IMG/VR virus record: IMGVR_UViG_3300029702_000330
Direction: 5' to 3' (one strand)
Source of the DNA: a virus
Taxonomy: Duplodnaviria > Heunggongvirae > Uroviricota > Caudoviricetes
Length of the DNA: 34,527 bases
The notes under the pieces were generated by a model, which made no database searches, was not told where the DNA came from, and saw only the letters and a program-made list of their open reading frames with translations. The position numbers and the translations under genes are program-made. This document shows positions 4,601 to 18,472 of this stretch, piece after piece (within the stretch, counting starts at the first letter, position 1; the number at the start of each line of letters is the position of its first letter).

Positions 4601-5086
4601 TATCGCGTCCTCAACAATGAATTTTGTGATGCAGTGCCTGGTGCCTCCAGGTGACGTTAACCAGTTAACAATTAACGTCGGATACAGAGAATCCACCCAT
4701 AACACTGTTTTTGGTTTTAACTGTTCCGCGTGCGCTTAGCCGCATTCACCGCATCACAAAATTCACTTTAAAAACGGCGGCAGAGCAGTCACGGAGTAAA
4801 ACTGATACCGCCAAACGTCACCAGAAAATTGATAACAGAGGGCGTTGCAGCGGGGTTGTCACTTAAGCGTATGGTCAACCTGACAACTCGGTGTCCTCAA
4901 CGGGGAAGGAATAACCCCGCCATACTTACCGCCGCGCCATTTTGCGGGTTGCCACAACCGGAAGCGCACGGTCGAATTAAATTTAACGACACCGTACAGT
5001 GAGACGAACTTCGCCGTGCGCTTTCGTGTTGTGTGCCTGCTTTTAACCACGTCAGGCGAGGTGGTATCCTTAAAATCACCACAGTT

Positions 5087-5662
5087 TTAAGGATTCATTA
5101 AGCAATGTCGCAACCACCAATAAATCCGCTTAAGAACATGAAAATTGATTACTGGTATAAAGCGCTTACAGTTGTTGGCGCTGCGTTGTTTGTCTTTAAT
5201 GGAACGTCTTTTTTTGACAGATATCCCGTTGTTCCATTGGGTTTTTTGTCCTCCGGCATCTTTTTTATTGGTTTGGGGGAGTGGATTAATCACCCTCTCA
5301 AAGTGAGATTTATTGATCCTGGAGTTTGGACTCGTGGATATAATCGTTCTTCGTGCGCACTCAGTATCATCTTCGACATACTTGGTTGTTTCCTGATTGT
5401 TACAGGAGTCGTCAAGTTCTTCTGATGTAAAACCGCAAATGGGGCACGTAACGGGAATTTTGAAAAGCGTTTCTCCGGGTTCCAGAACAAAATTTTCTGC
5501 GGTCTGATTTTGCTTCTCATATTTGTGCTCCGCGTCATTGTGAGAGCACATTCTTATTCTGAGTGCCTGTTTAAACTCACTGAAGCTGAGAGCTTCTTCG
5601 CCTTCGGCAAGGCCTTCGAAGTATTCTTCGTAAGCCTTTTCCATGATTGTGTCGAAATCCAT
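5087..5662 (-). CDS. Hypothetical acidic protein with CxxC motif (191 aa from internal Met); C-terminal part overlaps an antisense membrane ORF
   Basis: Start ATG at 5662 lies 1 nt after the TGA of the upstream gene with GGTGA RBS; N-terminal 80 aa acidic with 'CPICGF'; C-terminal 110 aa is K/R/N-rich and may be antisense shadow. Confidence 0.4.
   Translation of the reverse strand: MDFDTIMEKAYEEYFEGLAEGEEALSFSEFKQALRIRMCSHNDAEHKYEKQNQTAENFVLEPGETLFKIPVTCPICGFTSEELDDSCNNQETTKYVEDDTECARRTIISTSPNSRINKSHFERVINPLPQTNKKDAGGQKTQWNNGISVKKRRSIKDKQRSANNCKRFIPVINFHVLKRIYWWLRHCLMNP
5105..5425 (+). CDS. Putative small integral membrane protein (about 3 TM segments), antisense to the 3' half of the 5087-5662 ORF
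   Basis: Three hydrophobic stretches ('ALTVVGAALFVF', 'VVPLGFLSSGIFFIGLG', 'ALSIIFDILGCFLIVTGVV'); RBS weak, so uncertain. Confidence 0.3.
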   Translation: MSQPPINPLKNMKIDYWYKALTVVGAALFVFNGTSFFDRYPVVPLGFLSSGIFFIGLGEWINHPLKVRFIDPGVWTRGYNRSSCALSIIFDILGCFLIVTGVVKFF

Positions 5663-5663
5663 A

Positions 5664-5819
5664 TCACTCACCTGAGTTTCTTTCCAGCCAGCGACGGGCA
5701 CCATTTTCGGTTTTAAACGTTTTGCTTTTGGTATACGTCATCGCGGTGAACGTGCCGTCCTGGTTGGGGAACACGCCACATACCAGAGATTCGCTGTTGC
5801 CAAGATCGATAGTATCCAT
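5664..5819 (-). CDS. Hypothetical small protein (51 aa), first gene of the leftward early operon
   Basis: Internal Met with GAGG 5 nt upstream; sits just downstream of an operator-like palindrome and is coupled to the next gene. Confidence 0.4.
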   Translation of the reverse strand: MDTIDLGNSESLVCGVFPNQDGTFTAMTYTKSKTFKTENGARRWLERNSGE

Positions 5820-5987: not shown

Positions 5988-6395
5988 TTATTTTATTGAT
6001 TTATTTTTACGCGCTTTAAGCATTTCTTCGAAGAGTTTGTTGAAGTTTTCTACTCTTGCGCGCATTTCAGACAGCAAGGCTTCCTGCTCGGAAGATGGAA
6101 GAGCATCGAATAATTCGATCAATTCTTTGTGGTTGGGAGTTAGCTCTGTTTCCACATGAAGTTCTTGTGCCGGCACTGGTGCCTTGTCTTCGTCACCAAA
6201 CATTAGCCATGTAGGTGAGCACTTCAGAGCATCCGCTAAAGCAAACAATCGTTTTCCGACTGGCTGGGTTTCGTCTCTTTCCCATTGTGAAATTGTGACG
6301 TGAGCAACCCCAGCGAGGCGCGCAGCTTCTCGTTGTGTTAAGCGTAATTCTTTTCGTCGCGCCAGAACTCGCTGGCCTAGGGTTCTTGTATCCAT
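5988..6395 (-). CDS. Prophage repressor, XRE-family HTH (CI/DicA-like)
   Basis: 135-aa ORF with N-terminal HTH 'LRLTQREAARLAGVAHVTISQWERDE'; divergent from a Cro-like gene; resembles DicA of Qin from memory. Confidence 0.85.
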   Translation of the reverse strand: MDTRTLGQRVLARRKELRLTQREAARLAGVAHVTISQWERDETQPVGKRLFALADALKCSPTWLMFGDEDKAPVPAQELHVETELTPNHKELIELFDALPSSEQEALLSEMRARVENFNKLFEEMLKARKNKSIK

Positions 6396-17699: not shown

Positions 17700-18060
17700 G
17701 GTAATATTAAATCGGAACATTTACATCGCGGAATGTAAAATTTAAATAAAAAGGACTCTTCCATGAGCCAAAATTCCTGAAATCTTAAGGGTAAGATAAA
17801 AGGTCTTAATCAGAATGACACTTTTATTAATAAATAAAGCTATTCTTTCATTGCTGTGTTTTTCTTTACAAAAGTAATCCTTGCTATGGGTGGTTAATCA
17901 TGCGTTAATGGTGTTCTGGTTTGTTACAAATTTATCTGAAGCAGTCATTGTTATAATTTTATTATTTGTATCTCTTGAGATTTCCTTGTTGGTTTTTCTC
18001 TCTGATATTTTTTTTCGGACCATTCTGCCCAAGGGCTAATTTCTTCAAAAGGTAATAATT

Positions 18061-18273
18061 ATGTCTAACAAAATGACTGGTTTAGTGAAATGGTTTAACC
18101 CTGAAAAAGGTTTTGGTTTCATCACGCCGAAAGATGGCAGCAAAGATGTGTTTGTCCATTTCTCAGCAATTCAGAGCAACGATTTCAAAACATTAACTGA
18201 GAATCAGGAAGTTGAATTTGGTATTGAGAACGGACCTAAAGGTCCTGCCGCTGTTCATGTAGTGGCGCTTTGA
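18061..18273 (+). CDS. Cold-shock protein family (CspI-like), 70 aa
   Basis: '[37 protein letters not shown]' canonical CspA-family sequence; long AT-rich 5' leader. Confidence 0.9.
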
Positions 18274-18472
18274 GGTAGACAATATTACAAACCATATTCA
18301 CTTTAGATGCCCGTGTTGTCATGGTTCCCAGTATAGAACATCATCTTTTGATGTTTCTGACATGAATCCTTTCGGGGCAAAATGTATCTTTTGTAAATCA
18401 ATGATGATTACATTTGATAATATTTCACAATACTTAAATGCCAGCCGTCTGTCGTTGGATTTAAAAAAGTGA
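18263..18472 (+). pseudogene. Zinc-ribbon paralogue of the 15754-15924 gene lacking a canonical start codon (possible pseudogene or non-canonical start)
   Basis: Frame encodes 'RCPCCHGSQYRTSSFDVSDMNPFGAKCIFCKSMM...', same CxCC...CxxC pattern as the other zinc-ribbon gene; no ATG/GTG/TTG upstream of the first Cys cluster; followed by a terminator hairpin at 18478-18500. Confidence 0.3.

Follow-up and report, generated by a model that had tools for sequence, protein, structure and literature searches.

Can a single stretch of phage DNA encode a protein on each of its strands? Coding on both strands is disputed for bacteria and phages, and most of the proposed cases consist of expression data for poorly conserved open reading frames (ORFs). 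The question is raised here by IMG/VR virus record IMGVR_UViG_3300029702_000330, whose 34,527 nucleotides, the window of this study, make up a complete-looking Qin-type lambdoid prophage of E. coli (int, xis and exo through to the tail genes). An ORF on the minus strand (5087-5704; 205 residues, ATG) contains, antisense to itself, a whole ORF of the plus strand (5105-5425; 106 residues, ATG). A sequence-only reading of the locus had given both ORFs these coordinates, had described them as an acidic zinc-ribbon protein and a membrane protein with three hydrophobic segments that could be SieB-like, and had asked whether both strands code or whether one ORF owes its length to a frameshift or a lost stop codon. 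We propose that the locus is probably a mobile cassette of temperate phages that sits in the early operon beside the repressor and codes on both strands. What is new is the family of the plus-strand protein, its concealment by a longer antisense ORF, the read-through of the early ORF that converges on it, and the codon-level evidence that this read-through is selected.

Results

The plus-strand ORF is a conserved membrane-protein gene

The plus-strand ORF is unquestionably a genuine gene and belongs to a conserved family of membrane proteins of about 105 residues with three helices. Homologues of 100-112 residues, at 35-56% identity, are present in Yersinia, Herminiimonas, Reinekea, Roseateles, Pantoea, Pseudomonas, Arcobacter, the Desulfobulbales and many metagenomes, and a profile search of 1.84 billion cluster representatives yielded 473 that are members of the family. 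The residues D15-Y-W-Y-K-A20, G56, G58-E-W60, N62-H-P64 and G94 are invariant (motifs DYWYKA and GxGEWxNHP). Between enterobacterial lineages, the ratio of non-synonymous to synonymous substitution rates (dN/dS) in the plus frame is 0.18-0.24, with changes falling mostly at the third codon position, and polymorphism within E. coli amounts to 14 synonymous and 16 non-synonymous differences and no stop allele. AlphaFold2 predicts helices at residues 17-32, 42-62 and 85-105 together with a beta hairpin, at a mean predicted local distance difference test score (pLDDT) of 82. On the Kyte-Doolittle scale, with a 19-residue window, the third helix alone exceeds 1.6. Searches for the protein in Pfam, NCBIfam, PHROGs and PADLOC gave no match, and a scan of viral contigs with the Yersinia homologue as query returned none.

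Phage annotation and PHROGs have missed the family, as gene callers pick the longer, unconstrained ORF on the other strand: the Prokaryotic Genome Annotation Pipeline (PGAP) leaves the plus-strand ORF unannotated in the three records inspected, and the record of phage HannyBb and PHROGs hold the minus-strand ORF alone. Those who would let the minus strand alone code, with the plus-strand ORF as a by-product, could point to this very choice of phage annotators and PHROGs, and to the greater length of the minus-strand ORF and its direction, which is that of the operon. That explanation is already refuted and retains practically no probability, since hundreds of plus-strand homologues lie in genomes where stops abound in the antisense frame, the protein contains motifs that are invariant, and dN/dS is 0.18 in the plus frame versus at least 1 in the minus frame.

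Some further observations concern the family itself. A second in-frame Met of the plus-strand gene (Met12, 5138-5140, in NMKIDYWYK) is kept in the E. coli, L010 and Yersinia lineages and is absent from the other subfamily; it resembles the Esc start inside P22 sieB, although a good Shine-Dalgarno sequence is lacking. The chromosome of Arcobacter sp. Pygsuia-1 carries three identical copies of a family member (L024-L026), presumably on a repeated mobile element. In Reinekea (L125/L126, 100-2730), a distant homologue lies within six small ORFs on the same strand that have no Pfam match and are followed by a ParD-like gene, a run that resembles a cassette array.

The minus-strand ORF carries a constrained CPxCG segment

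The minus-strand ORF is composed of a YdfB-derived beginning, a segment specific to the cassette and a tail that mirrors the plus-strand gene (Table 1). Its start is indeed well coupled, as had been noted, to the stop codon of ydfA, at the ATG at 5662 (MDFDTIM, the YdfB start used by PGAP); the ATG at 5704 lies inside ydfA. Full-length YdfB, of 42 residues, is absent, because only its first 34 codons are retained and homology to K-12 stops at about 5562. PGAP labels the ORF either as a truncated ydfB pseudogene ("ydfB, missing C-terminus") or as a 191-residue hypothetical protein on the minus strand. In PHROGs the ORF is phrog_35040, and family searches gave nothing beyond this PHROG.

The middle segment is the part on which protein-level selection can be read. 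CPICG, at 5432-5446 (CPIC being residues 87-90 of the 205-residue form, 5435-5446), is found exactly 7 codons ahead of the plus-strand stop codon read in antisense. In four lineages whose plus-strand genes are synonymously saturated, the conserved codons of the motif F-x-I-P-x-x-C-P-(I/V)-C-G-F vary at third positions alone, and over the motif region the minus frame is the best conserved of the six frames, with 9 of 21 columns invariant. Since the changes are synonymous in the minus frame, the segment is protein-coding on the minus strand; judging from this pattern of substitution, it is under purifying selection as protein. The motif recurs at identical spacing to the plus-strand stop in the enterobacterial lineages, in Roseateles and in over 10 other lineages of phages. 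The CPxCG ORF always points the same way as the early operon, both on the PL side and, in the case of L280 and Roseateles, where the cassette lies between cro and a cII-like gene.

A zinc-ribbon identity found no support. One CPxCG is invariant and the later Cys residues are not conserved, the Pfam search gave no significant zinc-ribbon match, and the Roseateles member gave weak, sub-threshold matches only; because a single CPxCG knuckle is conserved, the term "zinc ribbon" is unsupported.

The amino-acid sequence of the tail is unconstrained. In the minus frame, its dN/dS is 1.0-1.4 in close pairs, and E. coli polymorphism comprises 8 synonymous and 20 non-synonymous differences and 2 stop alleles. 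AlphaFold2 is confident for the YdfB part of the minus-strand protein alone, with pLDDT below 50 in the tail. Net charge in the 191-residue form is -9 over the N-terminal 80 residues and +13 over the last 71. The suspicion that the C-terminal half resembles the antisense of a membrane-protein gene was therefore well founded, and the acidity ascribed to the N-terminal half is real as a net charge; its acidic stretch, SEELDDS...EDDTE, already belongs to the overlap, where it is read antisense to the Phe, Val and Ile codons that make up part of the third plus-strand helix. A lowered synonymous rate within the overlap, hinted at in a few pairs, was dismissed, as it is absent in a clade-wide count (0.81 of columns inside versus 0.82 outside).

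Two other candidates for the motif were set aside. In the Desulfobulbales, a convergent small ORF ("...EEFDATCPSCGMFHLT...") was considered as the CPxCG partner and rejected: it is a near-invariant neighbour whose distance varies from 0.1 to 1.1 kb, it does not overlap, and CPxCG is a common motif. In Pantoea, "CCECG" within the overlap is the antisense of Ala and Thr codons and was taken as chance. In the Desulfobulbales (L035, L037-L041), the near-invariant small ORF ("...AENPTGACGYIDHMTIDELRERAVGEEFDATCPSCGMFHLT...") that converges on the plus-strand homologue at varying distance was judged an unrelated conserved neighbour. Two Yersinia enterocolitica assemblies (L008 and L007) differ by 1 nucleotide in an A-run about 70 nucleotides upstream of CPICG, which puts the ATG of the minus-strand ORF out of frame in one of them; the difference may reflect either an error of sequencing or a genuine frameshift.

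Codons that would stop the minus frame are avoided

Both ORFs have codon starts congruent to 2 modulo 3 and are therefore in exact antisense codon register, so that minus-strand stops arise solely from TTA, CTA and TCA codons of the plus-strand gene. That gene has 10 Leu and 7 Ser codons in the window, among them no TTA, CTA or TCA. Given its own third-position composition, the probability of no minus-strand stop is 0.024; the openness in this window alone is unusual, not extraordinary. Further lineages were gathered by a pattern search for two motifs of the plus-strand protein together with CPxCG on the opposite strand at the proper distance, and antisense stops were counted against a null model in which each Leu or Ser codon is redrawn from the gene's own third-position composition.

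In the 11 partner-bearing lineages, the last 60 plus-strand codons hold 5 antisense stops where 23.2 are expected (Poisson P = 6e-6), and all 5 belong to one lineage, L240 (IMGVR_UViG_2541047080_000002); the remainder of the gene holds 20 versus 24.5 expected. In 19 partner-less homologues, the counts are 51 versus 58.0 expected for the last 60 codons and 58 versus 62.3 for the remainder. Leaving out the window's own lineage (by subtraction) gives 5 stops in the last 60 codons versus 21.2 expected. Where the overlap is complete, in four lineages including the window, the plus-strand gene's N-terminal part is free of stops as well (0 versus 5.0 expected). Counted by codon, stop-making triplets account for none of the 70 Leu and 21 Ser codons in the C-terminal part and for 13 of 73 Leu and 4 of 25 Ser codons in the N-terminal part (Fisher P = 8.5e-6); codons of four-fold families ending in A show no difference between the parts (0.24 versus 0.21).

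The ORF of the further lineages begins about 24 codons before the motif (MSTSANRKMIxLPxGMKFxPVYSKCPKCGCDL). It reaches 63-74, 91, 103 or 120 codons into the plus-strand gene, and 2 codons in L240; in most lineages with complete overlap, it ends 15-36 nucleotides before the plus-strand start codon. In close relatives no minus-strand stop occurs near 5425, and the plus frame is conserved. From codon choice, then, the minus frame is kept open into the plus-strand gene by selection, while the sequence of the tail drifts with that gene. The shared DNA carries constraints from both strands: a dN/dS of 0.18 on the plus strand, and on the minus strand the avoidance of stop codons plus a conserved segment that feeds into the overlap.

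Several points weigh against coding on both strands. The openness of the window, which has by itself a probability of about 0.02, is what prompted the choice of the locus. The 60-codon test window was picked after the overlap lengths had been seen, the effect being large nonetheless, and the count over the whole gene in the partner-bearing lineages is a weaker test (25 stops observed versus 47.7 expected). L240 is the only lineage in which a CPICGF ORF ends two codons into the plus-strand gene, two E. coli alleles carry premature minus-strand stops in about 2.6% of the sampled loci, and a promoter scanner found no promoter for the plus strand.

Some of these points also bear on the idea that the plus strand alone codes and that the minus-strand ORF is a "shadow", open by chance, lengthened by an accidental in-frame fusion to ydfB and preferred by gene callers for its length. 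A tail that is unconstrained in sequence and predicted to be disordered would fit such an origin, as would a probability of about 0.02-0.1 of finding no stop in this gene alone, the minus-strand stop alleles that segregate in E. coli, the early end of the ORF in L240, and the pseudogene label that PGAP mostly applies. We nevertheless consider a shadow unlikely. The CPxCG segment lies outside the overlap and is conserved as protein, with synonymous changes, and ribosomes must therefore enter the overlap. Stop-making codons, moreover, are depleted specifically where the ORF enters the plus-strand gene, in 10 of 11 lineages and by comparison with internal and external controls (P of about 1e-5 to 1e-9). 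Coding on both strands is thus the favoured reading, since the plus-strand gene is real, the CPxCG segment is constrained and the frame is kept open, even if the sequence of the tail is unconstrained. An extension by frameshift or lost stop codon is correspondingly disfavoured; in this window, the ORF is additionally a recombinant fusion with the first 34 codons of ydfB.

The gene occupies a sieB slot behind a sas-like element

All prophage relatives examined have the plus-strand gene next to the immunity repressor and on the other strand from the early operon. This is the layout of sieB, which in lambda (34482-35036, plus strand) converges on and abuts N (35037-35438, minus strand) and in P22 is arranged alike. 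As in these phages, the gene of the window lies left of the repressor in the early-left operon, beside the immunity region, on the opposite strand, and converges on the preceding early gene.

The gene also shares with sieB the element that precedes it. Across all module lineages, conservation of the 60 nucleotides before the plus-strand ATG greatly exceeds that of the coding sequence. The sas-like element (Table 1) has an invariant core at 5033-5065 (plus strand GTGCCTGCTTTTAACCACGTCAGGCGAGGTGGT), near-identical to lambda 34394-34428 and to P22, 55-90 nucleotides upstream of sieB. It also has a hairpin at 5067-5094, the 3' arm of which includes, on the plus strand, the Shine-Dalgarno sequence AAGGA. 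The version of the element found in the L216 lineage matches 142 phage records. Read in reverse complement, the element is the 3' portion of the sas antisense RNA of P22 (sequence in PMC13397905), an RNA whose 5' end is antisense to the sieB start codon; in P22, sas switches sieB translation, and the phage thereby escapes exclusion by its own system (PMC12197685).

Every lineage is predicted to form the hairpin, with differing arms (TTCTCG/CGAGAA, ATCCTTAAAA/TTTTAAGGAT, TTCTTGG/CCAAGAA), and the same hairpin with different arm sequences indicates compensatory change; this covariation was judged by inspection and by separate folding per lineage, the MAFFT alignment having left the arms out of register. 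Folding-energy z-scores of RNA over 5000-5104 are not significant on either strand, and the element has no Rfam family or match. The stop codon of the minus-strand ORF, TAA at 5087-5089, overlaps the hairpin's 3' arm as well as the Shine-Dalgarno sequence of the plus-strand gene (AAGGA, 5089-5093). Ranade and Poteete (1993) reportedly found that sas is processed from the PL transcript. SieB itself is a membrane protein. A promoter at 5045-5071 (TTAACC-N16-TGgTATCCT) was considered as well and is possible, but homology to sas accounts better for the conservation there.

The Klebsiella phage ST405-OXA48phi1.2 (L329; MK416007.1, 1801-2064) carries the sas-like element before an unrelated, unannotated acidic ORF of 64 residues (MNKDDKAWLL...), and the slot thus accepts more than one kind of cargo gene. 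Together with its sas-type element, the sieB slot appears to be an expression cassette that can be reused for unrelated cargo expressed in the lysogen.

The cassette is a mosaic insert in a Qin-type operon

On the minus strand of the window, a DicA-like repressor, ydfA, the overlapping ORF, DicF RNA, dicB, ydfD and the exonuclease gene follow one another, an order that matches the dicB (early-left) operon of Qin (PMC5069750). An alignment with a K-12-like Qin locus finds the flanks nearly identical and the divergence confined to about 4977-5562, with the right junction inside ydfB, after codon 34. The cassette is carried by 806 of 5,426 complete E. coli genomes (about 15%), nearly always at an identity of at least 99%, and it is also found in phage HannyBb.

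Table 1. Features of the two-strand locus and its surroundings (positions are those of the window).
Feature	Position	Strand	Remarks
DicF small RNA	4775..4826	-	Rfam RF00039, 72.5 bits; further downstream in the same operon; context only
Mosaic cassette replacing the ydfC segment of K-12 Qin	4977..5562	.	alignment with K-12-like locus
sas-like antisense-RNA element	5010..5107	-	complementary to leader and start codon of the plus-strand gene; putative RNA ends
YdfB'-CPxCG-tail fusion ORF, early-left (dicB) operon	5087..5662	-	191 residues from the YdfB start
Tail of this ORF, 112 codons, mirroring the plus-strand gene	5090..5425	-	hydrophilic; acidic, then basic; frame open, sequence unconstrained
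Small membrane-protein gene, 106 residues, ATG; cargo of the sieB slot	5105..5425	+	homologues, dN/dS, AlphaFold2
Cassette-specific, non-overlapping segment, 45 codons	5426..5562	-	ends in F-x-IP-x-x-CPICGF-T
YdfB-derived N-terminal 34 codons	5563..5662	-	identical to K-12 Qin ydfB (alignment)
ydfA (DUF1391), first gene of the dicB operon	5664..5819	-	upstream of the fusion ORF
DicA-like immunity repressor	5988..6395	-	two-strand module directly to its left, as in all enterobacterial relatives

The near-identical strain TUM14759 provides some observations on the neighbourhood. Its DicA-like repressor, intact in the window, is annotated as frameshifted (L001, 4189-4595). By collinearity with TUM14759, a P-loop ATPase of the Sll1717 family lies at 8935-10422, between the replication genes and hokD, and may be a defence-type accessory gene. 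Rfam matches at 11285-11459, 15014-15406 and 17915-18300 are to the sok antitoxin RNA (beside hokD) and to two cspA thermoregulator leaders; the latter overlie essD and gnsB in the collinear TUM14759 and are not directly before cspB (14156-14371) or cspI (17044-17256).

Discussion

Based on these findings, we propose a scheme for the working of the cassette. In the lysogen, the DicA-like repressor would shut the early operon, and the membrane protein would be made as an accessory function, most likely superinfection exclusion or abortive infection, by analogy with SieB. Upon induction or infection, early-left transcription would cross the gene antisense and would yield the sas-like RNA over its leader and start codon, silencing it, and the CPxCG ORF would be translated on this early-left antisense transcript. 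In the window, recombination has also fused the ORF in frame to the first 34 codons of ydfB.

The part of the scheme that concerns function is an analogy: the position and the regulation of the gene, which are like those of sieB, suggest that its product acts in exclusion or abortive infection. The SieB-like character proposed by the sequence-only reading is therefore borne out by the position and by the sas-like element common to lambda and P22, and not by any sequence similarity to SieB. Speaking against such a function are the comparison with lambda SieB (BLASTP E = 3.1, with no PHROG or PADLOC match to add to it), the comparison of the AlphaFold2 model with the PDB (best E = 1.3, to generic three-helix membrane subunits) and the distant homologues that occur in non-phage contexts.

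Two explanations may be offered for the open frame. Translation of the ORF could hold ribosomes on the transcript across the antisense gene, letting transcription run on to the sas element and the downstream early genes in phages that lack an N antiterminator and show no N gene between the repressor and the module. Alternatively, a minimum length of hydrophilic, basic and disordered tail could be needed behind the zinc knuckle. The first of these has to reckon with a minus-strand RNA that has a C/G ratio near 1 over the gene and no obvious rut signature, with the subfamily of 63-74-codon overlap, in which about 300 nucleotides downstream are still untranslated, and with K-12, which tolerates a long untranslated stretch in the same dicB operon (PMC5069750).

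The second explanation leads to a different view of the pair, in which both strands code and the tail is itself functional as protein, a zinc knuckle followed by a long hydrophilic, basic and disordered extension whose length and composition matter rather than its sequence. Such a protein could be an Esc-like antidote to the membrane protein during lytic growth, or could serve the sas system by binding nucleic acids or annealing RNA. In its favour, the frame stays open over at least 60 codons, clusters of basic residues recur where the tail ends, and the total length is about 96 residues or more in the lineages examined. Even the tail-less product of L240, a lineage with a degenerate sas-like element and a G+C content of 0.36, reaches 107 residues by a long N-terminal extension. 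Precedents for an active partner are P22, which requires an antidote (Esc) to its own SieB (PMC12197685), and the antisense pair of phage Fc02, both members of which have a phenotype (PMC9936078). On the other side, no residue of the tail is conserved beyond those imposed by the plus-strand gene, synonymous variation of that gene is equal inside and outside the overlap, AlphaFold2 predicts no fold and family searches give no match, and the composition of the tail is what the antisense of a membrane protein has in any case. We hold a functional tail to be possible and are inclined to doubt it.

A more elaborate version would make the locus an exclusion/anti-exclusion switch on two strands, in which the lysogen makes the membrane protein and the complementary strand gives both the sas-like RNA and a CPxCG antidote. 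The tail, as a codon-for-codon antisense peptide of helices 2 and 3, would bind and neutralise the membrane protein through hydropathic complementarity. If true, this would explain why the frame is open and in exact register while its sequence is free to follow the plus-strand gene; we regard it as very improbable.

Among known systems, sieB of P22 and lambda comes closest. Besides sharing the slot and the conserved element, which in P22 forms the 3' part of the sas antisense RNA, both loci have a small membrane protein as product, predicted here. The plus-strand protein differs from SieB in length (106 versus 184-192 residues) and has no sequence similarity to it. Unlike P22 sieB, the family has no internal Esc-type start throughout, the in-frame Met12 being confined to the enteric lineages. 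The gene that converges on sieB, N in lambda and gene 24 in P22, stops outside it, whereas here the converging ORF reads through the plus-strand gene.

For the overlap itself, the closest parallel comes from Pseudomonas phage Fc02, whose olg1 and gene 10 are both translated when cloned and both exclude phages (PMC9936078). There, too, a gene expressed in the lysogen beside the repressor is overlapped antisense by the second gene of the early lytic operon (PMC9936078). Fc02 is a B3-like transposable phage, and neither its proteins nor its phage type is related to ours. The evidence in Fc02 is experimental, without an evolutionary test, while ours is evolutionary, a codon-specific avoidance of stops read from sequence alone.

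The K-12 Qin prophage has the same operon, with ydfB and ydfC at the same place, and codons 1-34 of the minus-strand ORF are those of ydfB. Here the cassette replaces ydfC and the C-terminus of ydfB; K-12 has no opposite-strand gene there and retains a degenerate sas-like remnant only. In E. coli O157:H7, embedded genes such as ano likewise present a coding ORF antisense to a coding gene; these cases are reported (PMC5960689; bioRxiv 10.1101/2020.11.18.388249) to rest on RNA sequencing and ribosome profiling of ORFs that overlap annotated genes. The situation is different here, as the annotated longer ORF is unconstrained, the unannotated embedded ORF is the conserved gene, and conservation of the pair extends to distant phage lineages. 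The preprint (10.1101/2020.11.18.388249) does not mention the present locus.

The locus also recalls type I toxin-antitoxin systems, one of which, hokD/sok, is present in the same window: a small membrane protein has its start covered by a cis antisense RNA. The resemblance is one of layout only. The protein here is larger (three helices, 106 residues), the antisense strand also codes for protein, and the antisense RNA would come from the early operon and would not be constitutive. Rfam gave no antitoxin RNA at the overlap, the sok match lying elsewhere in the window.

Taken as a whole, the pair appears to be one of the rare well-supported examples in which a single stretch of bacterial DNA encodes a protein on each strand. 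TTA, CTA and TCA are missing exactly where the antisense ORF runs and are present elsewhere in the same genes and in partner-less homologues, a signature that is hard to explain otherwise. Because the cassette occurs in about 15% of complete E. coli genomes, the proposal is directly testable. The sieB slot with its sas-type element, in turn, may be worth searching for new genes of phage defence or conversion.

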